Counted from the stretch's first letter, positions 4,351-52,366 are shown. The stretch: DNA of 64,000 bases from Oscillospiraceae bacterium (GCA_015064445.1 SVSE01000001.1:344924-408923), one strand, 5' to 3'. The notes: a model not told the origin generated them from the sequence alone. Numbers and translations are program-made.

Positions 4351-4499
4351 TTTCTCCTCCTTGGCAGAGGGAAACAAAAAAGCGAGCCCCATCTGCCTAA
4401 AACAGATAAGTCTCGTCATTTAATATGAGGCCAGACCGAAGTCGATTGTTGACCACATAGCATCGCCTATCGATGCAAACTACTCCCTTATATATTTTT

Positions 4500-4528
4500 A
4501 TTTTAGCATATTTCTATTACAAAGTCAA
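4500..4528 (-). promoter_or_regulatory. sigma-A-type promoter of the tetR-like gene (gives a ~140-nt leader)
   Basis: Minus strand TTGACT (4523-4528), 17-nt spacer, TAAAAT (4500-4505). Confidence 0.45.
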
Positions 4529-4551
4529 TATTTTTGCATTGATTTTTTAAA

Positions 4552-4582
4552 AATAAAATCCACTCGAAAGAGTGGATTTTTG
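4552..4582 (-). terminator. terminator of the nfeD-SPFH operon
   Basis: ATCCACTC-GAAA-GAGTGGAT hairpin plus T-run immediately after the stop at 4585-4587. Confidence 0.65.
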
Positions 4583-4584
4583 TT

Positions 4585-5547: not shown

Positions 5548-5990
5548 TTGTTTTCCTCCTTATTTATAGAAACTATTGCCTTATTTCCTGAAACCTGCTT
5601 GAAGATTACCACCTCTCCCTGCTCGATTACCGAGCCATCGTCTGAGCGCGCAGTCCAAACAAGACCATTTATTTTAACAGCACCAGTTTCCTTTATGTTA
5701 TCAATTGTTTCTGTTACAATTGCGGTTTTGCCTATGTTAAGCTCCAAGTTTGTCTTTGCATCCTTTGGCTTGCCTGTAATCCTTTTGACAAATGGCTTTG
5801 TTGCAAAAAGTGTGCCAATTGCAAGCACGACAAATATAACAATCTGCCATATCAAGCCCATTTCATCAAAAATTGCAACCACAACACCTGTTATAAGTGC
5901 TGATATTGAAAACCAAATTGATACAAATTGAGTTGTAGCAAGCTCAACAACAAGCAATAAAATCGCAAGTGCGAACCAAATCCACATCAT
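5544..5990 (-). CDS. NfeD family membrane protein
   Basis: Three N-terminal TM helices plus a C-terminal OB-like domain (GAVKINGLVWTARSDDG). 4-nt overlap with the SPFH gene, which is the classical NfeD-stomatin pairing. Confidence 0.85.
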   Translation of the reverse strand: MMWIWFALAILLLVVELATTQFVSIWFSISALITGVVVAIFDEMGLIWQIVIFVVLAIGTLFATKPFVKRITGKPKDAKTNLELNIGKTAIVTETIDNIKETGAVKINGLVWTARSDDGSVIEQGEVVIFKQVSGNKAIVSINKEENK

Positions 5991-7085: not shown

Positions 7086-8479
7086 TTCTTTTTACGAAAT
7101 TTCTCATTTCTGTTAATTATTTTGAATGGAGTTGCAAAAATGATTTTTATATCATTGAAGAGTGTCCAGTTTTCGATATATTTGATATCAAGCTCTATTC
7201 TTCTCTCAATAGATGTATCTCCACGGAAGCCATAAATTTGAGCAAGTCCTGTAATGCCTGGCTTTACCTGATGCTTTACCATATAAAGAGGAATTGTTTT
7301 GCTATATTCCTCAACAAACTTAGGAAGCTCTGGTCTTGGACCTACAAGTGACATTGAGCCAAACAAAACATTGAAAAATTGAGGCAATTCATCAATACCT
7401 GTTCTTCTCAAAAATGTGCCAAATCTTGTCTTTCTGCTTTCGTCATACTCGTGTGCATCCCCAAACTTGTCGATAGGCTCATGTCCCTCGACCTTCATAG
7501 AACGGAACTTATAAATTGTAAATTCCTTATTATTTTTACCCACTCTTACCTGCTTGAATATAACAGGTCCCTTTGAGGAAAGGCGCACTCCAATTGCTGC
7601 AAAAAGCATAAGAGGCGAGGTGAGGATTATCAATATAATTGATCCGATAATATCAATCGCTCTTTTGAGAGCAGCATTTGCAATATTATCAAGAGGAATG
7701 GCTCTTGTATTGATAAGTGGAAGGTTTCCCACCATATCAACCTGACATTTTGATTTGAAGTATTTATAAACTACAGGAATAATTGATGCGCGAATACCAT
7801 TTTGGTCACAAATTGTGACTATTTTTTGTGTTTTAGTTTCTTCCTTTGGTTCAAGTGCGAGCACAACCTCTTGTGGACGATGCTCCTTGATAACGCGATC
7901 AAGATCTGCATAATCTCCGAGCTTTTTGAAGCGAGGCTTCTCTGCGTCAGAAACACAACCGATTATACGATATCCAAAATGAAGGTTGTCGTTTATTTGT
8001 CTTGCATATTCTACTGCACCATATCCATTACCAACAATAAGAACATACTTTGGATTTTTGTTCTTGATACGAATATAGTGAAGAATTTTTGTTGCAATAA
8101 TTTTCTTGACAGTGAGCACGGCCAAGGAGATTAAGCATATTGTTATTGTAAGAACAAAGTTACGGGAATCATTTTCATTATTTATGATAAGCGTTACGGC
8201 AACAACAGCAACGCCCATAATAACTGCCTGCGCAATTACAAGCTTGACGATTTGCGACATAAGCTTTTCCCAACGCTTTGCCGAATACAAATCGAATATA
8301 AAATATGTGCCGGTTGCAAAAATCACCAGGAGTGCACCTATCATTACAGATTGGGCATTTATGTTATAGCCAAGCCATCTATCAGCCACAAAAAATGATG
8401 CTGACATGACGCATGCGTTCAAAAAGAAATCAAGAAAAGCACCAAGGTATTTAATTGATGTCTTATTGTTCTGTACCAT
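7082..8479 (-). CDS. undecaprenyl-phosphate sugar phosphotransferase (WbaP/EpsL-type priming enzyme)
   Basis: 4-5 N-terminal TMs, central CoA-binding-like domain, C-terminal bacterial sugar transferase domain (KFRSM, LPQFFNVLFGSMSLVGPRP, KPGITGLAQI). Confidence 0.85.
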   Translation of the reverse strand: MVQNNKTSIKYLGAFLDFFLNACVMSASFFVADRWLGYNINAQSVMIGALLVIFATGTYFIFDLYSAKRWEKLMSQIVKLVIAQAVIMGVAVVAVTLIINNENDSRNFVLTITICLISLAVLTVKKIIATKILHYIRIKNKNPKYVLIVGNGYGAVEYARQINDNLHFGYRIIGCVSDAEKPRFKKLGDYADLDRVIKEHRPQEVVLALEPKEETKTQKIVTICDQNGIRASIIPVVYKYFKSKCQVDMVGNLPLINTRAIPLDNIANAALKRAIDIIGSIILIILTSPLMLFAAIGVRLSSKGPVIFKQVRVGKNNKEFTIYKFRSMKVEGHEPIDKFGDAHEYDESRKTRFGTFLRRTGIDELPQFFNVLFGSMSLVGPRPELPKFVEEYSKTIPLYMVKHQVKPGITGLAQIYGFRGDTSIERRIELDIKYIENWTLFNDIKIIFATPFKIINRNEKFRKKK

Positions 8480-9311: not shown

Positions 9312-10190
9312 TTAGATGCTAAATATGAAATTTTTCTTTGTCAATTCGAATATTGCTGTGCCGAGCAATGCAAATGCAATTCCCCAAAGGTAAAGTGTTC
9401 CAAGACCACTATAAACCGATGCCTCTGCTACTGTGCCGAGCTTTATTCGGTAAACTATGTCTCTAAAATACTCTACAAAGTGCGCCATAGGATTGAGCTT
9501 CATAACAACTCGAATTACGAGAACCTTCCAGCTCTCTCCAAGATTTTGAAGCTTATAGAAAATAGGTGTTAGGTACATCCAAAGTGTAAGGAATACATTG
9601 TAGAAGTGCATTACATCTCTAAAGAAGACATAAAGCGCTGACAAAATAAGGGACATACCATAATTAAACAAGAATAATGCAGGAAGCATTAGTATTGTCA
9701 TAAAAATTGCAGGGCCAAACACCGGCGTTTTGATGCTTACGAAAAGCATAACTGCAAGAAGCGCGATGAATGAAAACAAGAAGTTAACAATTGCGCTGAG
9801 ATTGCAGGACAACGGGAAAACATTGTAGGAAATTTTATTTTTCGTAAGTAGTCCGCGATTGTAAACAAGTATAGGAAGTGACTGTGTTGTGGCAGCACGC
9901 ATTGTGTTGAAGATTATGTTACCACACAAGAGGTACAAAAGATATGTGCTGTCGTCGTTATACTTGAATATGGTACCGAAAACAAGGTACATAACGAACA
10001 TATTCAAAAGTGGGTTAAGTATAGTCCACAAAACTCCGATTGCAGAGTTACGGTACTGTAGCTTTATACCACGCTTTACAAGCTGAACAACAATGTTTTT
10101 ATTTTTTATCAATTCTCTTTTTTGCTTTATATAGACCTCTTTTGCCTTAGCCTTAAAAGCAGAAAATTTTGGTGATTTAAATATATTCAT
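9312..10190 (-). CDS. ABC-2 type export permease (Wzm/TagG-like)
   Basis: Six predicted TMs. Position upstream of the Wzt-like ATPase in a glycan locus. Confidence 0.8.
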   Translation of the reverse strand: MNIFKSPKFSAFKAKAKEVYIKQKRELIKNKNIVVQLVKRGIKLQYRNSAIGVLWTILNPLLNMFVMYLVFGTIFKYNDDSTYLLYLLCGNIIFNTMRAATTQSLPILVYNRGLLTKNKISYNVFPLSCNLSAIVNFLFSFIALLAVMLFVSIKTPVFGPAIFMTILMLPALFLFNYGMSLILSALYVFFRDVMHFYNVFLTLWMYLTPIFYKLQNLGESWKVLVIRVVMKLNPMAHFVEYFRDIVYRIKLGTVAEASVYSGLGTLYLWGIAFALLGTAIFELTKKNFIFSI

Positions 10191-10258
10191 TGAACTTTCC
10201 TTGCTTCATTTTTTACCGAAATTGCCTATGTTATTTTAATATTATATCAAACTTTATA

Positions 10259-12112
10259 TTATTTGTCAAGTGCTGATGAGACATCAAGCTCATCAAGGCA
10301 CTTACAAATCTCAGAATACATATAAAGCGAGCCGACGCAAAGTAATGCTTTTTTCTGCTCGATTGATGCCTTGATAGCCTTTTTTAGTGCATCAGAAACA
10401 GATTCGCAAGGATATGCAGTGATACCATTCTCTGCGTATACACGAGCATACTCATCTGCGCCAAGCGCCCTTGGATTGTCTGGTCTTATGCAATAAACCT
10501 CGTTTGCAATAGAGCCTATTTGCTCTGCTATATATCTATAATCCTTATCAGCCATAACACCAGTTATGATATTGATTTTTTCGTTTTCAAAGTAGCCCTT
10601 AACGCTATCAACAGCGCTTTTTACGCCCTGTGGATTGTGTCCACCATCAGCGATAATCAAAGGATTTTTCGAAAGGATTTCAAATCTCGCATGCCATTCA
10701 ACAACGGAGAGTCCGTCGTATATTGCCTCGTTTGGTATATCTATACCAAGCGATTTAAGAATATCGATTGCCGAGAGGACATTTGATGCATTAAATGGCT
10801 GATATTTACCAAGAAGTGGAATATGCACATTCTTGTATTCACCATAATCAAAATTTGTGCCCTCTAAGGTAAGGTCTTTTATTTCTGTTTTCGAATGGTC
10901 AACACTAAAAAGCTCAGAGCCAAGCTCGAGTGCGCGAGCGCTTATGATATTCTCAGCCTCCTTGCTTTCCCCACACCAAAGGCAAGGAATGCCAGGCTTT
11001 ATAATTCCTGCCTTTTCAAAGGCAATCTTCTCTATTGTATCTCCCAAAATCGAGGTGTGATCAAAATCAATTCCTGTTATTACAGATAAAACAGGGGTAT
11101 CGATTATATTAGTCGAGTCAAGACGACCACCTAAGCCACACTCTAAAACAACATAATCACAGTTGCTTTGAGCGAAGTATTCGAGGGCAATAGCGGTTAT
11201 AAGCTCAAATTCAGTAGGCTTCTCTGCCATTTTATCAGCGATAGGCTTTACCTTTTCAGTAAGTGAGACAAGCTCGTCATTTGAAACCATTTCTCCGTTT
11301 ATCGCCATTCTCTCGTTGAAGGTCTTAACATACGGAGATGTAAATGTACCTACCTTATAGCCTGCCTTGCTTAGCACGCTCGAAAGCATTGCACAAAATG
11401 AGCCCTTGCCATTAGTGCCTGCAACATGAATAAATTTAAGGGATTTTTGAGGGCTTCCAAGCGCCTCGCAAAGCTCTTTTATTCTATCAAGACCTGGATT
11501 GCAGAAGGTCCAGTTGATTTTATGGATATATTCAAGCGCGTCATCATAGGTCATTTTGGGTGTTTCTTTTTCGCTGACATATCCGACAGCCTTAGCGAAG
11601 CTTTTCCTTTTAAGCAAGGCACAAAGAAGCAAAATTTCAACAGGGGCGATGAGCATATAAAGTGGAATTCTCAAAAGCACAAGCGCTCCGTAGAACTGAT
11701 AAAGTCCTATAGGCTTTACTATCATTGAGCCCACAATATGAGCAAGTGCGCCACTTACTACAATTTGAAGTGTTCCCTTTTTGCGAATTATAAGCTTTGA
11801 TGAGATTCCCGACAAAACTCCGACAAGCGTTGCGCCAAGAGTTACGATTAGATTTGGTGGGTATGCCTGACTTGAAAGCAAATAGCTGACAAGGTCCGAG
11901 CAAGCGCCAACCACTCCACCGACAATAGGACCATATAAAATTCCCGAAAGAATTATCGGCAGATTTTCGAAGGTGATTCTAAAAAGTCCACCATCAAAAT
12001 TTAAAGCAGTTTTACAAAAGATACCGATTACGACACTTATTGCTGTAAGCATCGCCGAAATTGTCAACGCACGAATGCTTCCAAAAAGCGCCATTTTTTT
12101 AGAATTTTGCAT
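10259..12112 (-). CDS. folC: fusion protein: ECF folate S-component (FolT-like) + folylpolyglutamate synthase (FolC)
   Basis: N-terminal ~185 aa multi-TM S-component-like segment (FRITFENLPIILSGILYGPIVGG). It continues without a stop into a Mur-ligase/FolC domain (HVAGTNGKGS, LECGLGGRLDSTN, DFDH). Start set to ATG 12112 with a GAGGAGG RBS. The upstream 46 tracked codons overlie the riboswitch. Confidence 0.8.
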   Translation of the reverse strand: MQNSKKMALFGSIRALTISAMLTAISVVIGIFCKTALNFDGGLFRITFENLPIILSGILYGPIVGGVVGACSDLVSYLLSSQAYPPNLIVTLGATLVGVLSGISSKLIIRKKGTLQIVVSGALAHIVGSMIVKPIGLYQFYGALVLLRIPLYMLIAPVEILLLCALLKRKSFAKAVGYVSEKETPKMTYDDALEYIHKINWTFCNPGLDRIKELCEALGSPQKSLKFIHVAGTNGKGSFCAMLSSVLSKAGYKVGTFTSPYVKTFNERMAINGEMVSNDELVSLTEKVKPIADKMAEKPTEFELITAIALEYFAQSNCDYVVLECGLGGRLDSTNIIDTPVLSVITGIDFDHTSILGDTIEKIAFEKAGIIKPGIPCLWCGESKEAENIISARALELGSELFSVDHSKTEIKDLTLEGTNFDYGEYKNVHIPLLGKYQPFNASNVLSAIDILKSLGIDIPNEAIYDGLSVVEWHARFEILSKNPLIIADGGHNPQGVKSAVDSVKGYFENEKINIITGVMADKDYRYIAEQIGSIANEVYCIRPDNPRALGADEYARVYAENGITAYPCESVSDALKKAIKASIEQKKALLCVGSLYMYSEICKCLDELDVSSALDK

Positions 12113-40242: not shown

Positions 40243-40268
40243 AAAAAGACCTCATTTGAGGTCTTTTT
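40243..40268. repeat. 26-bp perfect palindrome (12-TT-12), terminator-like; copy 1
   Basis: AAAAAGACCTCA-TT-TGAGGTCTTTTT. Overlaps the stop of ORF 40252-40773. Confidence 0.7.
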
Positions 40269-40773
40269 GGATTGAGATTATTTTTTGAAGCTTGTTTATC
40301 AAGCCTTTATATGCATAGATTTCCACCTCGAAATCATCTCCAACAATCACGACACGTGGAGGCACAATATATTTTCTTCGTGCATATTCCATCTCAAATT
40401 TAATTCCCAAATAACGAAACTCTGTAATGTCAGAATAATTTACGCTTCCGTTTGTCCTAACACGACGCATTTCCTTGCGTTTTTCATTTGCAAGAAAGTT
40501 AATCTGAGAGTTGAAAAAATATAATTTATCCTCCCCTATGATATATGATATTTTTCGACAAGCTATCAATAAAGCAACAGGCAACGCCATCCAAACAACA
40601 ATAAGAAGTCCGATAATTACACCTCGCCCTTCTCTTGGTGGAACACTTGCAGAGGTAACTATGGCTAAAATTAAAAATGGTATCGAAAAAATCGCTGAAA
40701 TGCTAAAAGAGGGAGAACGATGCTTTTCTCCATGAACGTTTTTAGGGTTTAAATTTTTATCAACTACAAGCAT
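40252..40773 (-). CDS. hypothetical 2-TM membrane protein
   Basis: ATG with GGTGGTG RBS, two hydrophobic helices, own promoter. No recognisable domain. Confidence 0.5.
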   Translation of the reverse strand: MLVVDKNLNPKNVHGEKHRSPSFSISAIFSIPFLILAIVTSASVPPREGRGVIIGLLIVVWMALPVALLIACRKISYIIGEDKLYFFNSQINFLANEKRKEMRRVRTNGSVNYSDITEFRYLGIKFEMEYARRKYIVPPRVVIVGDDFEVEIYAYKGLINKLQKIISIQKDLK

Positions 40774-40914: not shown

Positions 40915-40940
40915 AAAAAGACCTCAAATGAGGTCTTTTT
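40915..40940. repeat. 26-bp perfect palindrome (12-AA-12), terminator-like; copy 2, at the GC-content jump
   Basis: AAAAAGACCTCA-AA-TGAGGTCTTTTT, 73 nt downstream of the last cargo gene. Confidence 0.7.
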
Positions 40941-41013
40941 TCTTGCGAAAGACCGCGCAAACGGTGCGTAAACGAGTTAAGAAAAGTGATGTGATGCGTA
41001 AAATGTCGCCACT

Positions 41014-42495
41014 TTACACGTATCCTACCTTCGATACGCCGATTACGCCTCTGCGCAGAAATGTTATCTCGATCTGCTCCGGTGTGAATTGCTCTGGAGT
41101 GAATTGCGCGAATTCAAACTGCTCGGGCTGGAATTCCTTATATTCGAATTTCTCGTATTCGAAAATCTCAACGCCGATTTCCTTCAGCACCTCATCTGGC
41201 AGCGTGTAGTCCTGTTCTACCAAACCGAACATCGTGAAGCCAGAGTCAACGCAAAATGCAATGACAACCTGCTTACCAACGCTGTATGCGACGCTGCCAA
41301 CAACGGATCCTACCAGACTGCCTACCAAATATCCGAATACGGGTATTTCGATAAACGCCTGCGATATACCGCCGCCTATCAATGCGCACGCTGCAACGAA
41401 AGCGTCTCTTGTAAGTTCGTCCGCAAATTCGCGTCCTGTCTTTTTGCCTCGCGCTATCTGTATAGCGTTGCAAATGGCATTAACCGCGACAACTGCGATT
41501 GCTGCAACCACGTGCGGATTGAAGTCCTTCGCTGCTTCTCCGAGCAATCCTGATTTACAAAATCCCACTGCTGCTGCCGATATTGAGCCGACAAGGAATC
41601 CCTTTGCTGCGCCTGAAACGGCCGCTACGCCGGTTGCCTTAACCTGCTCGATATCCAATTCGCCTGTCTCGATTAAGTATTGTATCGTTTTTATAATTTC
41701 TGGTGTCGCTTTTAATACCGCCGATATAACCGCTGCGGTCATACCCGCCTTCATTGATTTATTGAAAACGTCTTTGAGCTTCACCCACTGTTCTGTGGTC
41801 AATCCCCATTTTTCTGGATTGAACTTTCCATCACGCAATTCGACCGCCATCTCTTTTGAGCCGGCACGGTTCATCTCCTGCGATCGTACACCGTCAGCCG
41901 TCTCTATGCGCTCTGTGCCGTGGTCGAGCATTCGCTGGTCGCGAGCAACGAGTTCCGGTCTTGCCTCGGCATTACCTGCCATTCGCTGAAACGCAAATTT
42001 GCGAGCTTCCTCTAATTGTCCTTCGGGAATAAGTGCGCCCATATCTCCGTACACAGGATCGTGTTCGCTGACCTGTCCAGAACGAATCAACTCCGCTGCA
42101 GTCGTCGAGCCGCTGCGCGCTGCTTCTCCGAAAGTGATATCCTGATACTTTGCGCTTAATTCTGCGGTGGCACCGTATTTTACTTGCCACATTTCGCCTG
42201 TCGATTCGCGGACAACGTCTGGTGTGCCAAAGCCCGTAGAACGTGGCACAACAAAATCGGGTGTCAGCCCTTTGACCGCTGCGTCTATGTTTGCAGTGTC
42301 AGCGTGCCAGAACTCCATCACGTCGCCACTCAAAAAATCAATGCCTTTGGCGCTGCCTTCGAACGCTTCCAAATGCTCGATGGCCTGTTCTATCTGTTCG
42401 CTGATACCGTCAACCCATATTCCAGTCAGTTCCGCTACTGCTGCTCCAGGTGCGTGATGCAAGTAGAATTCATATCCTTCTCTTACACCTGCCAT
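41014..42495 (-). CDS. hypothetical membrane protein: ~270-aa soluble N-domain, glycine-zipper TM region, C-terminal F-x-PEQ repeats (cargo gene 12)
   Basis: GGGGAG RBS. Gly/Ala-zipper helices (GVAAVSGAAKGFLVGSISAAAVGF, GYLVGSLVGSVVGSVAYSVG). PDVV...WQVKYG stretch. 3-nt gap to the upstream gene. Confidence 0.6.
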   Translation of the reverse strand: MAGVREGYEFYLHHAPGAAVAELTGIWVDGISEQIEQAIEHLEAFEGSAKGIDFLSGDVMEFWHADTANIDAAVKGLTPDFVVPRSTGFGTPDVVRESTGEMWQVKYGATAELSAKYQDITFGEAARSGSTTAAELIRSGQVSEHDPVYGDMGALIPEGQLEEARKFAFQRMAGNAEARPELVARDQRMLDHGTERIETADGVRSQEMNRAGSKEMAVELRDGKFNPEKWGLTTEQWVKLKDVFNKSMKAGMTAAVISAVLKATPEIIKTIQYLIETGELDIEQVKATGVAAVSGAAKGFLVGSISAAAVGFCKSGLLGEAAKDFNPHVVAAIAVVAVNAICNAIQIARGKKTGREFADELTRDAFVAACALIGGGISQAFIEIPVFGYLVGSLVGSVVGSVAYSVGKQVVIAFCVDSGFTMFGLVEQDYTLPDEVLKEIGVEIFEYEKFEYKEFQPEQFEFAQFTPEQFTPEQIEITFLRRGVIGVSKVGYV

Positions 42496-42498
42496 ATT

Positions 42499-43050
42499 TT
42501 ACTCCCCAAGGAACGCCGTCAGCCCGTCCATGTACATTATTGTTGCCAGCAAAGTATATTGCTGCTTTTCCGCGTCTTTGCTGCGGAATATATCACCGAC
42601 GCGATTATACATTCCAACGAAGAAATTCTTTTCATTCGGGCTGTATTGCATATCGAATTTTTTCTCAAAGTGCTTTGAGTATTGTTCGCAGAGTTCTTGG
42701 AATCGAGCCATATTATCTTTGTTAAGCGACGCTGCGTCTACGTACATAAACGCCTGCGTACCAAGCCAGCCGTAATGCATGCCTGCCTCGCAGAAGGTAT
42801 CTGCAACATTTTCACGCATCGTTTTTGCAGTGCGGCTGTTGCCGATGAAAAGAACGTACTGCGCAGACGACAGTTTCGGTCTGTTGTTTGCGTATTCTTT
42901 TTCACTCCAAATATTCGCATCCAGCTCGCCATCTTTGGTGCCTGTCTGCGCGCCATCTGTATCATCATTGCCACTAATCATTTGCAAAAGATAATTTGCC
43001 GTCGCTTCTGTGGCTTTATCGTAAACTATAATAAGTTTTTTCTTCACCAT
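42499..43050 (-). CDS. hypothetical cytoplasmic alpha/beta protein, possibly divergent TIR/DUF1863-like (cargo gene 11)
   Basis: GGGAGGG RBS. LIIVYD...IWSEKEY...YVLFIGNSRTAKTMRENV pattern. No P-loop. Confidence 0.55.
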   Translation of the reverse strand: MVKKKLIIVYDKATEATANYLLQMISGNDDTDGAQTGTKDGELDANIWSEKEYANNRPKLSSAQYVLFIGNSRTAKTMRENVADTFCEAGMHYGWLGTQAFMYVDAASLNKDNMARFQELCEQYSKHFEKKFDMQYSPNEKNFFVGMYNRVGDIFRSKDAEKQQYTLLATIMYMDGLTAFLGE

Positions 43051-43065
43051 ATCGGTTGCCCTCCC

Positions 43066-44079
43066 TTAAAGCACTGTCGCGAGTGCTTTTGCTACCTCGC
43101 TCCTGATATTGTCGTTTTTGTATGCGTACCAAATCAGATGGTCAAGTTCGTGATTATTCAACACGCCGACCTTGTCACGAAGTGCGCTGAATATTGTATA
43201 AAATTCTATGTAGCTGAGTTCTTCAAAGTTTTTCCCAAACCACAATTTTTTGTCGATTTTGTAATATGCGAGATAATACGGCATAATTGCGCGCACCACG
43301 GAATCGTTGATTGTATATGCGCAGCCGCCGTACAGCCACTCATTTAAGTAGCGGCACATTTTGCTTGCCAAGCTCTTATCTCTGCGGCTGTTATTATCAA
43401 CCAAATGCTGCAACAGAGCATCGACAAGGTATTCGTCTCCTGCCGCTATTCTTTCGAGAAATTTATTGGCGGGATCCGCGCAATATTCCGCGAGAAGTGT
43501 CATCGTTTCTTTCGATGTTCTTGTAGAGTTTTCCGTTGCGATTCGGTTTATAATATCGTAATACGCTTTTGCGGAGTAATCACCAGCATTGAAGTATTGC
43601 TCCATGATGGCTTTACCTTTTGACTGATACGCTGGGTCTACAGCTATGCACGCTTCTACGATATCCGAATTGTGCTTGTTGAGACAAACCATCAAGAAAT
43701 TGTCGGTTTCTAAATCAACGAGGTTGTGCGGTACTGTTAACAGCAGCTCCTCATCGAAAGATTTCGGCACTGTTCTGTGCTGCATGCGGTTCGCTGCGGC
43801 GGTTTGCTTGTTTGTTACAACAGTGATGCCGCGCTTCGTAAATTCAACCCACCTTTCCTGCAGGTTAATTGCGCTGACTACATATCCTGCGTCGAGCCAT
43901 CCTTTTTGAAACGATGTAACGTGAATCGTCGTGCAGTTCGCCCATGCGGGTCTATCAACGTATGCCGAATTAGGAAGCGTTATAATATTATTCAGATCAT
44001 CGAATGTAAAATGCACTGTATCTGTACCATGCTCCTGCAGCCATGCTGTTAGAGCGGCGTATTTACTAATTCGTGCCAT
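43066..44079 (-). CDS. hypothetical protein with DUF7662-like N-terminal module and helical C-terminal domain (cargo gene 10)
   Basis: KYAALTAWLQ...VHFTFDDLNNII.LPNSA...RPAWAN...WLDAGYVV...VEFTK. C-terminus contains SLASKMCRYL...YTINDSVV. AGGAGG RBS. Confidence 0.55.
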   Translation of the reverse strand: MARISKYAALTAWLQEHGTDTVHFTFDDLNNIITLPNSAYVDRPAWANCTTIHVTSFQKGWLDAGYVVSAINLQERWVEFTKRGITVVTNKQTAAANRMQHRTVPKSFDEELLLTVPHNLVDLETDNFLMVCLNKHNSDIVEACIAVDPAYQSKGKAIMEQYFNAGDYSAKAYYDIINRIATENSTRTSKETMTLLAEYCADPANKFLERIAAGDEYLVDALLQHLVDNNSRRDKSLASKMCRYLNEWLYGGCAYTINDSVVRAIMPYYLAYYKIDKKLWFGKNFEELSYIEFYTIFSALRDKVGVLNNHELDHLIWYAYKNDNIRSEVAKALATVL

Positions 44080-44287
44080 GCTTTGCCTCCTTTATTTTAC
44101 GGCGTACTTCCTGATAACGCGCCTTTGTCGCTTCGTATTTTGCTTGCGCTTCAGCGAGCTTTTCTTCTCGTGTTTTACGCGGTTTTACTTTTTGTTTTTT
44201 CGGTCTGTTAAAGAGCCAAACGAAAAGAGCAGCCAGACACACGGTGTCTGCTAATTCCTTTATACAATCGCAGTCGTGCTTTTTCAT
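44066..44287 (-). CDS. small membrane-anchored basic coiled-coil protein (cargo gene 9)
   Basis: GAGGAG RBS. Hydrophobic VCLAALFVWLF followed by a Lys/Arg/Glu-rich helix. 14-nt overlap with the next gene. Confidence 0.5.
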   Translation of the reverse strand: MKKHDCDCIKELADTVCLAALFVWLFNRPKKQKVKPRKTREEKLAEAQAKYEATKARYQEVRRKIKEAKHGTN

Positions 44288-44394
44288 CTCTGCTGCTCCT
44301 CTTATTATAACATATTTTTGCGATAATTTCTATCCGTATATGGCACTTCGTGGGGTTATTTTCGTGTTTTCGCTATTTTTATGCAAAGCAATCG

Positions 44395-44910
44395 TCACAG
44401 AAACGCTTTTTCAAGGTCTATATCCAAACCGAACTCTACCAAATCCGCATCACGAACAAGTAATTCACTCTTTATGATATCGGCAATTTCATAATAGGCA
44501 AGCTTACGGCCGTTTTGAAAATCGTCTTTGCTTTCATTAGCGTCGTCGATTGATTCAAACGCGCGCTCAAGCACCCTCGCTATTATGTACTTATAAGCGT
44601 CAATCGACATAGTATCATACTTTTTAAATTCTACCGTAGGACGCTCTGGCGTAGCCCATTCTGCCCACGCGTAATACGTCGACCACTCATCTGACACATT
44701 ATCCTCGTGCCACTCTTTTTCAAAATCAGCGCTTTTATTTGCGGGAATCAACCACCCCATCAAATCTTCGCCTTCATATTCGTCGTTTTCAAAATCGCGG
44801 CCATCGCCAGCGTCAAGATAATAAACGCAGCCTTGCTGCTGGGCAGTCTCTTGTACGATTTCAAAGTATTTGATAAATTTTTCGCTTTCATTAGTTTTTA
44901 ATCCCAGCAT
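44395..44910 (-). CDS. hypothetical acidic cytoplasmic protein (cargo gene 8)
   Basis: ATG with RBS. Asp/Glu-rich. No recognisable motif. Confidence 0.5.
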   Translation of the reverse strand: MLGLKTNESEKFIKYFEIVQETAQQQGCVYYLDAGDGRDFENDEYEGEDLMGWLIPANKSADFEKEWHEDNVSDEWSTYYAWAEWATPERPTVEFKKYDTMSIDAYKYIIARVLERAFESIDDANESKDDFQNGRKLAYYEIADIIKSELLVRDADLVEFGLDIDLEKAFL

Positions 44911-44966
44911 ACCATCACCGCCTTATCTTATTGAATAGTCCTTTTTTATCACCTTGCATTTTGTAT

Positions 44967-45343: not shown

Positions 45344-45658
45344 TTATATGAAACTGACGCCCATGCTTGCCAAGCTGATGACGGTGCCGATCAACGAAAC
45401 GACGAGGTAAAGCACCTTGCCGCCACGCGCTCCAAACCAAATGCCGAATCCTGATGCCACCAACATAATTGCGCCTGTGATAAAGTACGGTGATGTCAGG
45501 TATTCTTCCACCATATACTTTACGCACTCCCAGAGCCACGGGAAGAACGCTACCAGTGTCTGCCAGATGACTTCCCACATTGCTCCGAGTGCGCTCCAGC
45601 CGCACACTGCAAGCACCAGCGCAGAAATTGCGCCGAGTTTAACTAATGTTTTTGTCAA
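45344..45658 (-). CDS. small 3-TM membrane protein (cargo gene 5)
   Basis: TTG start preceded by AGGAGG at 6-nt spacing. Three hydrophobic helices. Confidence 0.55.
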   Translation of the reverse strand: MTKTLVKLGAISALVLAVCGWSALGAMWEVIWQTLVAFFPWLWECVKYMVEEYLTSPYFITGAIMLVASGFGIWFGARGGKVLYLVVSLIGTVISLASMGVSFI

Positions 45659-45671
45659 TTAAATCCTCCTG

Positions 45672-46361
45672 TTATTTTTTATCGTATGTTATAGTAATCT
45701 TTTTGCATTGAATTTTTATGTAGCCAATATCGAAAATCAGCTGCGTTGCATCGTGACGTGCTGGATAGCAATTAAAATCCTCAATCCACGTACACTCTGG
45801 ATCTATCGACCGCGCTGTGAATTCTATCACGTCTTCGAATACGAAAGTCGCAAAGATACCATCATACTCTAACCGCAGCGTAGCCGTTTCCTTATCCTGT
45901 GTAACCGCTATAAATTTACTGTCGTGGAATTGAAAATCTGACGAATCATCCCATCCTGTAATGTACGTACAGGATTTTTCATAATTGCTCGAACAGCAGT
46001 TGTCAAATTTGTACGCGTAATAGTCATACAAATCTTGCGCCTGCTTATACTCCTCATCGGTCGGCTTCTCATCCGTATCCATAGCGGCTTTATATGCCTC
46101 CAAGCACGGTTTAAGGTAGCGATTCAACACTGTATAAAGCTGCTCATGGTGCTGATACTCCCACGCCATCATATGCAAAATGCGTCCGTACCACAGCTGG
46201 CGCTTTTCTTTTGCGTTCTCCGCGTGGTAGTATGCAAACCAGAGATGATAATATCCTTTTTTATCATCCCTTGACCAATATCCTGTGCCTTTAGGGCACC
46301 ACAGACAAAACCGCGCTGTGTTGTAGCTATCAATAATGTCTTGCCATGATACGTCTGTCAT
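45672..46361 (-). CDS. hypothetical protein, DUF4085-like C-terminal half (cargo gene 4)
   Basis: Start set to ATG 46361 (AGGAGA RBS). C-terminal FHDSKFIAV...LRLEY...FVFEDVIEF...TWIEDFNCY...IKIQCKKITI pattern. Confidence 0.5.
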   Translation of the reverse strand: MTDVSWQDIIDSYNTARFCLWCPKGTGYWSRDDKKGYYHLWFAYYHAENAKEKRQLWYGRILHMMAWEYQHHEQLYTVLNRYLKPCLEAYKAAMDTDEKPTDEEYKQAQDLYDYYAYKFDNCCSSNYEKSCTYITGWDDSSDFQFHDSKFIAVTQDKETATLRLEYDGIFATFVFEDVIEFTARSIDPECTWIEDFNCYPARHDATQLIFDIGYIKIQCKKITITYDKK

Positions 46362-46378
46362 TGTTTTTCTCCTGTTTA

Positions 46379-47014
46379 TTAGCTCAACGCCTTCTTTGCC
46401 CACTCGATATCAACCACAAAGTCTGCGTCGCCTACTGCATCAATATTTGCTGCAAATTTCTGACGAATTTTGTCGTAAAGGTCGTTAGGAACGCCGCAGC
46501 TCAACGGCTCATCTGTCATAAATTGCAACGACATCTCTCCGTCCTGATCAATCATTACGTACACCGCTGTAATTTCTTTATCTGGGAACTGCTTTGCTGC
46601 ATTTGCCAGATACATCAATTTAATAATTTCGATTACGCGATCGTCCAGCTCGTTGTTAAATATAATGGCTTTTTCGCGCAGAGCGTTTTGGTCGCATACT
46701 ACACGCTTCTTATAATCATCCATCTTTACGGGCAGCTTTTCTTCCATTGCAATCAGTTCTTCTATCGTGGATTCAACCGCCTCGGGACGCACGAAATATA
46801 CCATCGCCTTATTCGTCATATCGTGATACAGAATATCGTATGAAAGATTGCTCTGGTGTCCGCATTTTTCACAATGGAAGCGGAACAATGTACCGTCAAG
46901 CAGCTGCTGCTTTGCGTCGGGATCTATATCACCGTTTAAGCTATCCCAAATTGTAATCTCGCATTCCTGCCCGCATTCAGGGCATTTGATTTTTTCAATA
47001 TGTTCCTTTGACAT
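46379..47014 (-). CDS. CpXC-domain protein (cargo gene 3)
   Basis: Two CPxC-type knuckles (KCPECGQ, HCEKCGH) at the N-terminus. AAGGAGA RBS. Confidence 0.6.
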   Translation of the reverse strand: MSKEHIEKIKCPECGQECEITIWDSLNGDIDPDAKQQLLDGTLFRFHCEKCGHQSNLSYDILYHDMTNKAMVYFVRPEAVESTIEELIAMEEKLPVKMDDYKKRVVCDQNALREKAIIFNNELDDRVIEIIKLMYLANAAKQFPDKEITAVYVMIDQDGEMSLQFMTDEPLSCGVPNDLYDKIRQKFAANIDAVGDADFVVDIEWAKKALS

Positions 47015-47026
47015 TTCTTTTCTCCT

Positions 47027-47848
47027 TTACAATGTAATGCTGCCTGCTTCTTTACCGTCGATGGCAAAGTTGAACAACGTACCCTTGCACACAGCTGCAA
47101 AGTAACCGGTCTTTGCGTACTCCGCTGCATAGTTCTTTTCGATAATTTCCAGTGTCTCGCGCAGCTGAAGCATTGCTGCGAATTCGTGCTTGCAGTTGTA
47201 GCTGCAGAAGCAACCGCAAATTAGCTTGCTTATCATACCACCTGCGTATTCGAATTCTACCTCGTATGCTTCGGTGCCTTCTACGATCGCATATCCCTTT
47301 GTACCATCAATACAGATATAGCGCACGCGATTTTCTATGTAGTATTCGTGTCCGCGCTCTGCGATTTCGCTGCTTATCTTCATGTCCTTGAGATTGTCAA
47401 GTGCGAATGCGCCTTCGTCGCTGGTGCCGCTTACATACTCCTCATCCTCTGCGTCCGGTGCCTTAAACCATGTGCGCGCCTTGCACTGCGGCAACGCCTC
47501 ACGGTCGAATGTTACGAAATGTGATCCTGCTAAATGGAACGTACCGTGTACGTCGGTGTCCACCAGAGCGATGACGCGCTGATACTTTGACAGCTTAATC
47601 TTAAAATTGTATGCCACATCTACAACGCGGCCGCGCAAGCCTTCCAGCTTACCGTCAACATAAACGAGGTCTCCACGACGCAAATCGAACTTATCGTTGT
47701 AATAAGCTAACGTCATGTTGCGCGTCGGGAAATGAATTTGCACCACAGACTTTTTCGCTTCGTTGCTGCGCGGTGCCGTAATGACGGGCGCAGATTCAAT
47801 TGTGTCTTCTTCAGATATTGCAGCTGTAAAGCCTATCTTGTACTTCAT
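47027..47848 (-). CDS. SWIM zinc-finger protein (cargo gene 2)
   Basis: C-x-C-x(n)-C-x-H signature in LICGCFCSYNCKHEFAAML preceded by GYAIVEGTEAYEVEF. N-terminal beta-rich domain. Confidence 0.6.
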   Translation of the reverse strand: MKYKIGFTAAISEEDTIESAPVITAPRSNEAKKSVVQIHFPTRNMTLAYYNDKFDLRRGDLVYVDGKLEGLRGRVVDVAYNFKIKLSKYQRVIALVDTDVHGTFHLAGSHFVTFDREALPQCKARTWFKAPDAEDEEYVSGTSDEGAFALDNLKDMKISSEIAERGHEYYIENRVRYICIDGTKGYAIVEGTEAYEVEFEYAGGMISKLICGCFCSYNCKHEFAAMLQLRETLEIIEKNYAAEYAKTGYFAAVCKGTLFNFAIDGKEAGSITL

Positions 47849-48975
47849 TATTCCTCACCTTCAATTCTTGATTTCATTTTTTGTACGATATCGAATATCT
47901 CGCGGTCAAGCACGAACGGCTCGCTGAATGCGTTAAGCACGATGCCTGCCACGTTCTTCTCGTTATTTATTGCCAGCGACAATGCTTCAAGGAAATGCTT
48001 TTCCACTTTCGAGAAGCCCTGTCCGTATTCTCCCATCTCCTCAGCACTTGAGAATATCGGGAAGTAGAAATTATCACCATTCTGCAGGATATCCGGTACC
48101 ATACGAATACTTTCTTCGCTGGTGATCGTCTTTCCGACCATTGCAGACGGATCGTCGCCTGCTTCTTCAAGCATTTTCTGCAGGGCTTCCATATCCATAT
48201 CGCCCATAATCGCGTTACAAGGAATCCATACCCAGCTATCGCGCAGTAATTCCAGTACCTCGAAGAAGTTCGGCTCGTTACGCTCTGCATTGAACGCGCT
48301 GACTGCCGCTTTGAGCATTGTGCCGTCAGCCAAGTCTTCTGCGGTGAGTTTCTTGCTCGGTGTCATATCGGAATAACAGATAACGTGTTTGTCCTCAGTC
48401 TCCTGTACGAAGAAGGCAATCTTTTCGCCTGCGTGATATCCGAAGTTCTGGTTCGGCTCGTTCAGAAGCGTCGCCATTATAAAGTGATCGCCCAGACCGA
48501 TTATCCTCGCCCAGCATCTTTCCGGCTGCAAGCCTTCACGTGTCAGGAATACCGCCACGTCATCGGGATAATGCAGATGTCTGCTCTCATCGAGGAAGCG
48601 CATTTCGCGGGATTTTTCTACCTCCTCGTCAGCGTCGTATCCCTTCAGCATTTCAATCTTTTTGGCATATCTTTCTTTGAAATCATCTGCATCCTTGAAG
48701 TAGGCGAATTGTTCATCCTCGATTGCGTCCGCGCGGATAAAGAAACGTGTGTCATCCGACGGAGCAAAGAAACGATATCCGTCATCGCTTTTTTCGCCTG
48801 CTGCCAAGACCTCTAATGTCAGTCCCGCTTGGGTATCTATATAACCGTACACCAGCATGCAGTTGGCTTTGTCGATATTAGGATATTCCTTCATGCATTC
48901 CTTAAATCTTTTATTCAGCGGGAACGCGCAAAAATTGTGATATAAAGCTCTGAAACCAGTCTCTTTTAACGTCAT
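47848..48975 (-). CDS. two-domain protein: DUF2314-like middle region + SseB-like C-terminal domain (cargo gene 1)
   Basis: Start set to ATG 48975 (GGAGG RBS). ERCWARIIGLGDHFIMATLLNEPNQNFGYHAGEKIAFF. VWIPCN...GDNFYFPIFSSAEEM...GIVLNAFSEPFVLD. The tracked N-terminal 139 codons overlap the recombinase and the terminator. Confidence 0.6.
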   Translation of the reverse strand: MTLKETGFRALYHNFCAFPLNKRFKECMKEYPNIDKANCMLVYGYIDTQAGLTLEVLAAGEKSDDGYRFFAPSDDTRFFIRADAIEDEQFAYFKDADDFKERYAKKIEMLKGYDADEEVEKSREMRFLDESRHLHYPDDVAVFLTREGLQPERCWARIIGLGDHFIMATLLNEPNQNFGYHAGEKIAFFVQETEDKHVICYSDMTPSKKLTAEDLADGTMLKAAVSAFNAERNEPNFFEVLELLRDSWVWIPCNAIMGDMDMEALQKMLEEAGDDPSAMVGKTITSEESIRMVPDILQNGDNFYFPIFSSAEEMGEYGQGFSKVEKHFLEALSLAINNEKNVAGIVLNAFSEPFVLDREIFDIVQKMKSRIEGEE

Positions 48976-49148: not shown

Positions 49149-50774
49149 TTATTCTTCGTATTTCTGTTCGATGCTCGCGCCGCATTTGAAGGTTATCTCC
49201 ATATAGTCGTCGTACATCGTGATGTGATCGACAAGCGCTTTTATGATGACCGCGTCGAGCGATACCATCGTTTGTGCGTTCTTTGTGTGTTCTGCGAAGG
49301 TGTTCAGCCATGCGCGTATCTCTGCGTAGCGGTTGTCTGTCGCTCGCAATTCCGCCTGCTGCTTTTCGAGCAATTGCATGTGATTCTTGCATCCTTGCAT
49401 CCTTGATTTATACTCGTCTTCGCTTATCTCCATGCGCTGCTTCGCCTTATGCAGTTCCAGCACCGCCTGCTGCAGTTCGATTATTTCCGACTCGATGCGC
49501 TCCAGCGCCGCTGCGTTCTCTGGCTGCAACGCCAGCTCTGCGCCTTCGCTTATTGCGTCTATGATTTCGTCCGCGTCCTCCGCCATTGCGCGTATCGCTG
49601 CGAGGTAGGTGCGCTCTATGACATCCTCATTTATGTGGTGCGAGTCGCATTCGCTCCTGCCGTTTACGATTCTGTTGCTGCATCCGAAGGCGGGTACCAC
49701 CTTGCCGCTGCCGACTCTGCGCGTATGACGTCTGAGCTTTGCTCCGCATTTTCCGCATATCAGCATACCGCTGAAGGTGTACTTGCTGGTGAATTTGCTG
49801 CTGCCGACCGCGTCGTTCTTTGCTTCCTTACGGCGTTCAAGTTCCGCCTTTGCCAGTTCGAACAGGTCTTTCTCGATGATTGCAGGGTGTGTGCCTTCTG
49901 CATAGAACATCGGCATCTGTCCTTCGTTCTTTACTCTGTGCTTCGAGAGGACGTCCGGCTTGAAGGTTTTTCCGAGTATCGCGTCGCCCGTGTATTTTTC
50001 GTTTGTCAGGATACTCTCGATTACGCTGTGCTGCCACCTCTGCCTGCCGAGCTTCGTCGGCACGCCGTCCGCCTCCAGACCTCTGCATATGCGGGTTATC
50101 GATATGCCCGATACGAATTCGCGGTATATGCGCCTCACAATTTGCGCCTCCGCCTCATTGATTTCGTAGATTATATGACCGTCTTCGCCTTTGCCAACCC
50201 GCGTATATCCGAGCATCAGACCAGTGTTTATAACCACCTCGCCGTTTTTCCGCTTCTTGGCATACGCCCATTTTATATTACTGGACATTGTACGTGATTC
50301 CTGCTCCGCCATCGCTGCCAGAATGGTGATTAGTACCTCGCCGCCAGGGGTGAGCGTGTCGATGTTTTCGCTCTCGAAGTATATGCCGATGCCGAGTTCC
50401 TTCAGTTCGCGTATGTACGTGAGCGCGTCGACCGTGTTTCTGGCAAATCGGCTGATGGATTTTACGAGGATTTTCTTTATTTTGCCTGCGCGGCAGTCCG
50501 CGATCATACGCATGAAGTCCGGTCGCTTTTCTGCTCGCGTTCCTGTGATACCAGGGTCTGCGTATATGCCGACGAAGTTCCATTCGCTCTTGGATTGTAT
50601 CAGTGCCGTGTAATGTGCCACCTGTCTTTCGAAGGAGTCTTCCTGTTCTTCGCGCTCCGTCGATACGCGGGCGTATGCTGCCACGGGTGTTTTTTCTATG
50701 ATTTCTTCTGCGTTTATATTGAGCAGCATTGCTCTCGGTATCTCGCGCACGACGCGCCTTGTTGCTGTTGCCAT
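49149..50774 (-). CDS. large serine recombinase (second of tandem pair)
   Basis: Resolvase catalytic domain (AAYARVSTEREEQEDSFERQ), recombinase domain, Cys-rich zinc ribbon (CGKCGAKL...CSNR), C-terminal coiled coil. Confidence 0.9.
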   Translation of the reverse strand: MATATRRVVREIPRAMLLNINAEEIIEKTPVAAYARVSTEREEQEDSFERQVAHYTALIQSKSEWNFVGIYADPGITGTRAEKRPDFMRMIADCRAGKIKKILVKSISRFARNTVDALTYIRELKELGIGIYFESENIDTLTPGGEVLITILAAMAEQESRTMSSNIKWAYAKKRKNGEVVINTGLMLGYTRVGKGEDGHIIYEINEAEAQIVRRIYREFVSGISITRICRGLEADGVPTKLGRQRWQHSVIESILTNEKYTGDAILGKTFKPDVLSKHRVKNEGQMPMFYAEGTHPAIIEKDLFELAKAELERRKEAKNDAVGSSKFTSKYTFSGMLICGKCGAKLRRHTRRVGSGKVVPAFGCSNRIVNGRSECDSHHINEDVIERTYLAAIRAMAEDADEIIDAISEGAELALQPENAAALERIESEIIELQQAVLELHKAKQRMEISEDEYKSRMQGCKNHMQLLEKQQAELRATDNRYAEIRAWLNTFAEHTKNAQTMVSLDAVIIKALVDHITMYDDYMEITFKCGASIEQKYEE

Positions 50775-50775
50775 C

Positions 50776-52236
50776 TTATGCCTCCTTCTTATTCCAGCCG
50801 ACCTTGTTTCCAGGTTGACCGTTACTGTATTTTCTGCTGATTTCCACCCCGTTGTAGAAGGTGAAGGTTATCACGCCTTTGTGGATTTTTATGCGTGTTA
50901 TGAATTTCTCGACCTTTTCGTCGCTGTATTCCGTTATGAGTGTGAAGTCGCTTTCGCGTACTACCTTTGTCCGCTGTTCTGCGTACCGCGCGTTCAGTCC
51001 CGCTATCTGCGCTTTGATGCGCTTTTGCTCCTCGCGGAAGGCGCTCTCTGGTATGAGCCGCTGCATACGCAGTTCGGAGAGTTCGCGTTCCTCGCGCTTG
51101 AGTCGCTCTATCGCCCGCTGCAGTATGATTGCCGACTCGCCCTGCGGCCGCTTTGTTACGAATTCGTTGTATGCCTCGACGAATTTTTCCTTCAGCACGC
51201 TGTCTTTTATCGAGGTGCAGTCGCAGCGCTTGACGCCGTACCGCAGCTTCGCGCCGCATACCCAGATGTCCGATGCCCACTTTTTGCCGCTGTTATTGAC
51301 TTTATGCTGGAAGTGTGTCCCGCACTGCCCGCACTCGATGAGCGAAGTTAGCGCGTATATCGGTCTCGGCACTCCGACCGTTTTCTTGTTTGTCCGCTGG
51401 ACTCTGACCTCCTGCGCTTTGTACCATAGTTCTTTGCTGACGATGCCTTCGTGCGTGTCTTCCATGTAATACCGCTTGCCGTATGTGCCGTCCATATTAT
51501 TGTGCTTGATGCCTAAGTGGTATACCGATTTGCCCATCATCGCGTCGCCCATGTATTTTTCGTTTGTCAGGATTGCGAGTATCACCTGATGCTGCCATAT
51601 GTTACCGCCCGATGCCCGATATCCTTCGTCATTCAGCGTGTCCGCTATTGCGCAGCAGCCCGCGCCGCCTACGTACATCTCGTATATGCGCCGTATTACC
51701 GCTGCCTCCTCCGGTACTATCTCCAGCGTATTGTCCTTCGTCATGCGGTATCCGTATATCTTGCTGCCGATGCTGATCCAGCCGTTTTCGTATCGGTGCC
51801 GTATCGACCAGCGCATTCTATCCGAGTCGACCTGCAGGTCGTTTTCTGCGACCGTCGCTGCGATCGTGAGGAATATCTCGCTTGTCGGCTGGAAGGTGCT
51901 GATGTTTTCGTTCTCGAATATGACCTCGATGCCGATATCGCGTAACTCTCGCACCGCCTCCAGCAGCTGCACTGTGTTGCGGGCGAAGCGGGATACGCTT
52001 TTGACGTATATCACATCGAATTTATGCTGCCTCGCGTCTTCCATCATTACGAGGAATTGCGGGCGTTTGTGTATGCTGCTGCCGCTGATGCCTCTGTCCG
52101 CGTATATGCCTGTGAGTTCGATATTCGGGTCACCTTCGAAGCGATCCTGCCAGTACTGCTCTTGGAACTCGTAGCTGTGCAGCTGCGCCGAGCTTGCCGT
52201 AGATACTCTGATGTATGCCACTGCGCGTTTTTTCAT
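50776..52236 (-). CDS. large serine recombinase (first of tandem pair)
   Basis: AVAYIRVSTASSAQLHSYEFQ catalytic motif, recombinase domain, zinc ribbon (CGQCGTHF...VCGAKLRYGVKRC). Start set to ATG 52236 (AAAGGAGAAAA RBS). Confidence 0.9.
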   Translation of the reverse strand: MKKRAVAYIRVSTASSAQLHSYEFQEQYWQDRFEGDPNIELTGIYADRGISGSSIHKRPQFLVMMEDARQHKFDVIYVKSVSRFARNTVQLLEAVRELRDIGIEVIFENENISTFQPTSEIFLTIAATVAENDLQVDSDRMRWSIRHRYENGWISIGSKIYGYRMTKDNTLEIVPEEAAVIRRIYEMYVGGAGCCAIADTLNDEGYRASGGNIWQHQVILAILTNEKYMGDAMMGKSVYHLGIKHNNMDGTYGKRYYMEDTHEGIVSKELWYKAQEVRVQRTNKKTVGVPRPIYALTSLIECGQCGTHFQHKVNNSGKKWASDIWVCGAKLRYGVKRCDCTSIKDSVLKEKFVEAYNEFVTKRPQGESAIILQRAIERLKREERELSELRMQRLIPESAFREEQKRIKAQIAGLNARYAEQRTKVVRESDFTLITEYSDEKVEKFITRIKIHKGVITFTFYNGVEISRKYSNGQPGNKVGWNKKEA

Positions 52237-52366
52237 TGCTTTTTCTCCTTTCATAGTTCTGGGTTTGAACCTGCGTAAAATTTTTGTCCCCGCCTTTTTA
52301 AGGCAGGGACAAAGATACCAGAATAATTGCAGAAAGTCCAGCCCAAAACCGAAGAAACACAAAGAA

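Follow-up and report, generated by a model that had tools for sequence, protein, structure and literature searches.

We analysed a window of 64,000 nucleotides (nt), the whole stretch of DNA given as one strand from an Oscillospiraceae bacterium (GCA_015064445.1, SVSE01000001.1:344924-408923), with a focus on four consecutive minus-strand genes at positions 41014-44287, which we number 1 to 4 from 5′ to 3′. The original prediction treated these genes as a single candidate defence or abortive-infection module. Our analysis leans, if only slightly, towards a different reading, in which genes 1–4 are a mosaic of independent cargo modules and genes 3 and 4 form a candidate membrane-acting two-component defence or abortive-infection pair. 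The four open reading frames (ORFs) are:

44066-44287, minus strand: gene 1, an orphan small protein of 73 amino acids (aa); ORF and junction confirmed
43066-44079, minus strand: gene 2, an independent DUF7662 protein of 337 aa; Pfam match, and the family occurs alone
42499-43050, minus strand: gene 3, the small partner of the pair, 183 aa; alpha/beta domain (residues 1-125), short linker and conserved C-terminal helix (residues 153-181)
41014-42495, minus strand: gene 4, the large component of the pair, 493 aa; ORF confirmed, predicted membrane effector and terminal gene of the prophage

The layout of the earlier description is borne out by direct reading of the sequence. Genes 1 and 2 share 14 nt (44066-44079), with GGAGG 5′ of the gene 2 ATG, gene 2 is separated from gene 3 by 15 nt, with GGGAGG 5′ of gene 3, and gene 3 from gene 4 by 3 nt, with GGGAG 5′ of gene 4. 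A further Shine-Dalgarno sequence, AGGAG, precedes gene 1, such that each of the four genes has one, and the gap 5′ of gene 1 measures 107 nt.

We scanned one genome per GTDB species (185,579 species genomes), found gene 4 relatives in at least 156 of them and kept 80 loci for comparison. In 78 of the 80 loci, the gene immediately 5′ of the gene 4 homologue, on the same strand, is a homologue of gene 3, and one of the two exceptions is truncated by a contig end. The synteny of these two genes, for which the original prediction had proposed a gene-neighbourhood analysis, thus holds across genomes, and their spacing is most often the 3 nt found in the window. Six metagenomic contexts encode, immediately 5′ of the gene 4 relative, a protein of 182–265 aa with 34–46% identity to gene 3; the pair is also intact in seven of eight IMG/VR contigs, in phage NatCom_9287 (PV036420) and on the Butyrivibrio plasmid pCY186. 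The divergence of gene 3 is correlated with that of gene 4 (Mantel r = 0.71 for 54 non-redundant loci, a value reached by 0 of 2000 permutations). The pair occurs in Clostridia, streptococci (mitis, pneumoniae, suis, cristatus), Coriobacteriia and Bacteroidota, and further in Treponema, Fusobacterium and one archaeal metagenome-assembled genome (MAG), a sporadic distribution across phyla of the kind expected from horizontal transfer. No third conserved gene was found beside the pair in these loci, where the only recurrent neighbours are streptococcal core genes.

Genes 1 and 2 behave differently. We compared the window by blastn with L024, the closest related prophage, which lies in a Christensenella MAG. 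The flanks align at 81–82% identity and genes 3 and 4 at 71%, but the segment between them has no counterpart in L024, which carries ~108 nt in its place:

43051-44965, minus strand: 1.9-kb cargo block comprising a 171-aa acidic ORF, gene 1 and gene 2; no counterpart in L024 by blastn

In L024 the slot is empty (7338-7445) and a DUF7662 gene with a different C-domain follows the pair (9513-10481). In L008, whose gene 4 is 75% identical to that of the window, the slot 5′ of the pair is occupied by a 443-aa gene, an LHH toxin gene and a SUKH immunity gene (2715-5656). The slot directly upstream of the gene 3/gene 4 pair is thus a hot spot of cargo exchange among related prophages. No homologue of gene 1 is present in any of the 80 species-genome loci, and no homologue of gene 2 lies beside the pair in these loci except for the L024 DUF7662 gene, a distant paralogue downstream of the pair that has in common with gene 2 only the 84-aa DUF7662 domain (51% identity) and continues into an unrelated C-domain. 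Nor do genes 1 and 2 accompany the pair in the viral, phage or plasmid loci or in the six metagenomic contexts.

These comparisons bear on the view that genes 1–4 constitute one defence system, with the DUF7662 protein as sensor, gene 3 as TIR-like signal generator and gene 4 as membrane effector. Tight same-strand packing, a single upstream promoter-like site and the absence of an internal terminator are what such a system would display, the array is identical in every sampled copy of the prophage, and L024 too has a DUF7662 gene near the pair. That gene, however, stands on the other side of the pair, the block with genes 1 and 2 is an insertion relative to L024, members of the gene 2 family are found without the pair, and the tests for a TIR domain in gene 3 fail, as described below. 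We therefore regard a single four-gene system as scarcely credible, and the claim of one unit is not upheld. The end of the prophage appears instead to be built from interchangeable cassettes, with a DUF7662 gene, an LHH/SUKH pair or nothing in the same slot, a warning against taking tight operon packing as proof of a single system.

The product of gene 1 has a single hydrophobic segment (residues 8-26) and a basic tail (isoelectric point, pI, 9.8), in agreement with the one hydrophobic helix and the basic character described earlier. Its only family match is a weak one to PHROG 2429 (E = 1.7e-4), and no homologue was found in any fetched locus, the contexts of gene 2 relatives included. The 171-aa ORF in the same block (44395-44910, minus strand) is very acidic (pI 4.2, 41 D+E versus 18 K+R), a composition that recalls immunity or DNA-mimic proteins, and has neither a family match nor a homologue in any fetched locus. 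Both this ORF and gene 1 are orphans, brought in together within the 1.9-kb block.

For gene 2, the assignment of the N-terminus to DUF7662 is confirmed: residues 7-79 (nt 43843-44061) match Pfam DUF7662 (PF24698) with E = 9e-9 and 35.4 bits against a cut-off of 26. DUF7662 has no known function; it is fused to a helical C-domain of ~240 aa (residues ~100-337) in gene 2 and to an unrelated C-domain in L024. The gene 2 family has 56 members, including stand-alone forms of the C-domain of ~243 aa, and DUF7662 is matched in 24 of 33 relatives. These relatives occur solo in varied cargo, for example with a Gabija-like OLD/UvrD pair together with Macro and TerB, with DUF2971, or with DUF4357 and Nmad3; they are usually near serine recombinases, never beside the gene 3/gene 4 pair, and none was found on viral contigs. 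Gene 2 is a separate single-gene cargo module, probably conflict-related too. The OGG-like fold proposed for its C-domain finds no backing in profile searches, as none of 33 members has a Pfam match to such a family, no PDB profile match is better than E = 0.1 and no glycosylase is among the PDB profile matches; an OGG or HhH-GPD glycosylase fold is unsupported on this basis.

A C-domain-only relative of gene 2, P0170, weakly matches Pfam EcoEI_R_C, the C-terminal domain of type I restriction R subunits (E = 1e-5), inside the region homologous to the gene 2 C-domain. The other 32 of the 33 members are without this match, which is an unconfirmed lead; it hints at a link of gene 2 to type I restriction-modification (RM), for instance in an anti-restriction or accessory role.

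The gene 3 family comprises 656 clusters at 50% identity in an exhaustive profile search, nearly all of them stand-alone proteins of 170–280 aa. The AlphaFold2 (AF2) model of gene 3, built from seven sequences with a predicted local distance difference test (pLDDT) score of 75, consists of three beta-alpha units, a beta-meander and a long C-terminal helix. Across 125 relatives, the conserved positions are DD29-30, DG40-41, W48, Y53 and a C-terminal helix of the pattern QY...Y...L..F. Gene 3 is probably not an enzyme, because few polar residues are conserved in the family while the C-terminal helix is.

The earlier proposal that gene 3 resembles a ThsB/DUF1863 TIR domain fails in profile, structure and catalytic-residue comparisons. 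The window protein matches no Pfam TIR family at E ≤ 1, and neither it nor 125 relatives match a TIR or ThsB profile. Foldseek comparison of the moderate-confidence model with the PDB returns only generic Rossmann-like folds (best E = 0.014), with no TIR domain in the top 50. The glutamate proposed as catalytic (E80) is Glu in only 12 of the 125 relatives, the commonest residue being Ser. Profiles of the gene 3 family, of DUF7662 and of the gene 2 family find no PDB match better than E ~0.1. We thus rejected a Thoeris/TIR assignment of gene 3.

For gene 4, over 728 full-length homologues of ~500 aa were found, none of them named or annotated, and no Pfam, NCBIfam or PHROG family is matched. 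Its AF2 model (43 sequences, overall pLDDT 73.6) divides the protein into the following parts:

41776-42495, minus strand: soluble N-domain, residues 1-240; pLDDT above 90 for residues ~30-240
41242-41775, minus strand: membrane region, residues 241-418; 5-6 long helices rich in Gly, Ala and Ser
41296-41334, minus strand: glycine zipper G388-x3-G392-x3-G396-x3-G400 (PVFGYLVGSLVGSVVGS); each Gly in at least 90% of 65 non-redundant homologues
41017-41241, minus strand: C-terminal tail, residues 419-493; acidic, aromatic (pI 4.2) and highly conserved

In the membrane region, Kyte-Doolittle analysis gives strong segments at residues 329-347 and 366-416 and weaker ones at 250-318. Together with the invariant glycine zipper and an N-terminus of cytoplasmic type, these helices speak for a membrane effector. 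The tail follows the pattern FGLV.Q.Y.LP ... F..F repeats ... LRRGVI..GY and has a pLDDT below 50 in the monomer model. Polar residues conserved in the N-domain among the 65 homologues are D58, E61, H64, T67, N69, R85, S86, D93, K106, S114, Q118, Y149, R154, Q160, R179 and S205. Foldseek finds no PDB or BFVD entry at E ≤ 0.001 for the gene 4 model, the top entries being generic helical membrane proteins with TM-scores of ~0.1, and a PDB profile sequence search with the N-domain gives no match better than E ~0.1.

The soluble N-domain, the glycine-zipper helices and the PD...Q.K-like stretch that had been described for gene 4 are all present, the last as PD-x10-QVK in the window. This stretch is relevant to the idea that the N-domain is an enzyme, for example a degenerate membrane-anchored PD-(D/E)xK nuclease, and that defence proceeds by catalysis rather than through a pore. 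D93, K106 and E61 are invariant and, together with H64, T67, N69, Q118, Y149 and R154, lie on an alpha-beta-beta-beta-like core; yet the (D/E)xK motif has no conserved acidic residue at its (D/E) position, which is Q in the window and G in the consensus, and neither Pfam, PADLOC nor the PDB yields a nuclease match. We judge catalysis of this type to be very unlikely.

Two further assignments of gene 4 were rejected. A holin or lysis protein, small and encoded in a lysis cassette beside an endolysin, does not fit a protein of 493 aa that is found mostly outside phages, in RM islands, and whose resemblance to holins is non-significant. An LXG toxin of the type VII secretion system (T7SS), a polymorphic toxin, was prompted by the invariant L55-x-G57 at a helix-hairpin turn together with the LHH/SUKH pair of L008. 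No LXG Pfam match is found, conservation extends over the full length rather than giving way to a variable C-terminus, and the pair occurs also in Bacteroidota, Spirochaetes and an archaeon, groups that to our knowledge lack a T7SS.

We compared the four genes with known defence systems. Pfam, NCBIfam, PHROGs and PADLOC assign a family to just two of the proteins, gene 2 (DUF7662) and gene 4 (PDC-M09B), and Pfam and PADLOC detect no SIR2, Macro, SLOG, SAVED, TIR or cyclase domain in genes 1–4 or as a conserved neighbour; the earlier statement that no known effector domain is recognisable stands. Gene 4 matches PDC-M09B over residues 243-406 (E = 7.7e-10), and its relatives P0039, P0102 and P0112 do so with E = 6e-14 to 8e-11, P0039 over residues 34-418. 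The term 'undescribed' of the original prediction is slightly overstated, since gene 4 matches a catalogued candidate. Our literature search, which extended to glycine-zipper defence effectors, found no paper that describes the pair, and none of the papers searched mentions PDC-M09 or DUF7662.

PADLOC includes the PDC systems, 145 untested single- and multi-gene candidates that come from a 'guilt-by-embedding' prediction (bioRxiv 10.1101/2024.01.29.577857). PDC-M09 is cassette CAS_00055, FAM_02775>>FAM_02807, with 380 instances (Payne et al., bioRxiv 10.1101/2024.01.29.577857). It resembles the present pair in being a two-gene cassette with the same A-then-B order, in the length of the B profile (480–486 positions versus 493 aa for gene 4) and in being found embedded in or next to RM-type loci, as is the pair in L001. 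It differs in that the B match is remote (35–49 bits), the alignment does not reach the conserved C-terminal tail of gene 4 and the A component of this pair is not recognised: PDC-M09A is matched neither by window gene 3 (E ≤ 1) nor by three distant partners (E ≤ 0.1) or 125 representatives (E ≤ 0.01). Without an A match, the locus has one of two components detectable by the PADLOC models.

Three known systems offer analogies of organisation. RexAB of phage lambda is a prophage two-component abortive-infection system with a cytosolic sensor, RexA, and a membrane channel, RexB. Like it, the pair is prophage-borne and consists of two genes, with a soluble or peripheral partner and a polytopic membrane protein thought to collapse the membrane potential. 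No sequence or structural similarity is detected, however, and the membrane protein is here the larger one, with a 240-aa soluble domain, so that the analogy is one of logic only. In Thoeris (ThsB TIR with ThsA, including type II TM-Macro ThsA), a small alpha/beta protein likewise adjoins a membrane-associated protein in defence contexts, but gene 3 is without TIR, DUF1863 or ThsB signal and without the conserved Glu, and gene 4 is without SIR2, Macro or SLOG. Kiwa, with the membrane protein KwaA and KwaB, is also a two-gene membrane-associated defence system, but the pair matches neither the KwaA nor the KwaB model and has another domain organisation.

Genes encoded within a few genes of the pair include (i) HsdR and GmrSD (L001) and McrBC, (ii) KwaAB and AbiU2, with Kiwa directly beside the pair in L005-L007, (iii) Mrr and NADAR, (iv) type III RM, BrxL, WYL and Eco47II, (v) a phage methyltransferase with a restriction endonuclease, and (vi) integrases and a primase. 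Genes 3 and 4 are thus often amid defence genes, in line with the earlier suggestion of a defence module; this does not extend to genes 1 and 2, which are not part of the pair. Inside the HsdR-GmrSD island of L001, an ADP-ribosylglycohydrolase gene starts 24 nt after the pair (9537-10658; also in L002 and L003) and may be a lineage-specific third component. In mitis-group streptococci, the pair is inserted at one conserved chromosomal site (L042 6845-7147 and 9994-12799, and ~16 other Streptococcus loci).

This distribution also bears on two other functions for genes 3 and 4. In the first, they would be a toxin-antitoxin (TA) or addiction module that stabilises mobile elements or mediates competition between them. 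Copies of the pair are indeed carried on plasmids and at the margins of prophages and integrative elements, the pair combines a small upstream partner with a larger, potentially toxic membrane protein under translational coupling, and in L008 it adjoins a polymorphic toxin/immunity pair. On chromosomes, however, it is often surrounded by RM, McrBC, GmrSD and Kiwa, and classical TA toxins do not usually reach 493 aa or contain a large conserved soluble domain. TA and defence roles are not mutually exclusive; as an explanation in its own right we consider the addiction module unlikely.

In the second, the pair would be a non-lethal envelope system that acts in superinfection exclusion at the step of DNA entry, or in membrane stress or transport unrelated to conflict. 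As the prophage's terminal 'moron' gene, gene 4 occupies a place where exclusion genes are frequent; it is also a membrane protein, and the streptococcal pair adjoins a PspC-domain gene and an ABC transporter. The sporadic spread across phyla argues against housekeeping, many copies lie outside prophages in RM islands, and there is no likeness to known Sie/Ltp proteins or transporters. We hold such an envelope function to be distinctly improbable.

For the favoured reading of genes 3 and 4 as a two-component defence pair, which would make them a divergent variant of the catalogued computational two-gene candidate PDC-M09, we infer the following mechanism. A single promoter may serve genes 1–4, which stand at the very end of a prophage with serine recombinases; genes 3 and 4 would travel as a horizontally mobile two-gene cassette, and translational coupling would yield gene 3 in a fixed ratio to gene 4. 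The gene 4 protein would be placed in the cytoplasmic membrane by its 4-6 Gly/Ala-rich helices with the fourfold glycine zipper. Gene 3 would bind gene 4 by its conserved C-terminal helix and hold it closed, most gene 3 relatives being predicted to be membrane-anchored as well. Infection would be sensed by the N-terminal cytoplasmic domain of gene 4, a putative new fold with a conserved polar pocket, and/or by gene 3. Upon this trigger, gene 4 would oligomerise or open, the membrane potential would be lost and phage replication would stop at the expense of the cell.

Several observations weigh against this reading. The gene 4 helices at residues 240-418 are predicted with a pLDDT of only ~60-74, pore formation is suggested only by composition and the glycine-zipper motif, and the likeness to LydA and PBS1 holins is local and non-significant (E = 0.6-1.3). 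The conserved polar residues of the N-domain would fit an enzyme equally well. A hydrophobic segment, mostly at residues ~140-190, is present in 63 of 75 gene 3 relatives and absent from gene 3 of the window, whose mode of association may therefore differ. The defence context is a qualitative list of neighbours, and in mitis-group streptococci the pair lies between core genes, with Tex-SprT-PspC upstream and an ABC/FtsX transporter downstream, and in no island. Finally, PDC systems are explicitly untested, and other authors too have described them as unpublished and unverified (PMC11811056, PMC12409345).

A bolder version is correspondingly tentative, and we would sooner expect it to fail than to hold. 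It states that the pair is a new, mechanistically distinct anti-phage system, in which a new cytoplasmic sensor or enzyme fold is joined to a glycine-zipper pore gated by a small partner, spread horizontally among gut and oral Firmicutes (including the S. mitis/pneumoniae group), Coriobacteriia, Bacteroidota, phages and plasmids, and that DUF7662 is a portable N-terminal sensor or adaptor module defining single-gene conflict proteins. If the pair works in defence, it adds a membrane-acting two-component immunity built from two folds without solved relatives, and it gives a first functional handle on the PADLOC candidate PDC-M09. Among human gut and oral bacteria, the pair is found on prophages, on plasmids and in defence islands.

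The position of the four genes at the edge of a prophage, as originally proposed, was corroborated. GC content rises from 38–40% in the host part of the window to 44–53% from ~41 kb onward, Pfam places tail genes of the siphovirus type at 53.6-63.4 kb and a tandem of two large serine recombinases at 49149-52362, and the recombinases are followed by ~8 kb of cargo that includes a CpXC protein. The gene 3 protein of the window recurs unchanged on contigs that share its cargo array and differ in host flank, with at least three flanks represented. Alignment of these flanks places the end of the element at ~40943, ~70 nt past the gene 4 stop, where the copies diverge after ...TTTCGCAA; consequently, gene 4 is the last gene of a mobile prophage and the hairpin that follows is host DNA. 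The segment 40943-40998 is 93% identical to L024. The remaining features of the locus are:

40943-41013, minus strand: last 71 nt of the prophage, after gene 4; identical in copies at three different host sites
40916-40941, minus strand: hairpin with T-run (AAAAAGACCTCATTTGAGGTCTTTTTTT), host-derived; minimum free energy -31.9 kcal/mol, z = -4.1, outside the element
44304-44332, minus strand: promoter-like site TAGAAA-17-(TG)TATAAT; 10 of 12 consensus positions plus TG extension, a consensus match only

The hairpin at 40916-40941 is likely the terminator of the gene 1–4 transcript at this integration site; no terminator-like site was found between the four genes. The TG-extended TATAAT noted in the original prediction is present at 44312-44304 as TGnTATAAT and ends ~4 nt 5′ of the gene 1 AGGAG. 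At this spacing, a transcript would start in or after the Shine-Dalgarno sequence. The promoter-like site is thus doubtful as far as translation of gene 1 is concerned: gene 1 may be poorly translated, or the promoter may not be real.

Further observations concern the surroundings. Between the recombinases and the 1.9-kb block, at 45344-48290, the cargo consists of unannotated ORFs of 104, 243, 273 and 107 aa and the CpXC zinc-ribbon protein (46379-47014), and is ~82% conserved with L024. In L116, L118 and L119 (~8020-8300), each host flank opens with its own terminator-like hairpin at the junction, immediately after ...TTTCGCAA. The element with tandem serine recombinases thus seems to insert beside intrinsic terminators at several sites. 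In the window, near-identical hairpins, AAAAAGACCTCA(TT/AA)TGAGGTCTTTTT, at 40916-40941 and 40243-40268 flank an unannotated ORF of 173 aa (40252-40773) that has two hydrophobic stretches at its N-terminus, and the two hairpin loops are reverse complements of each other.

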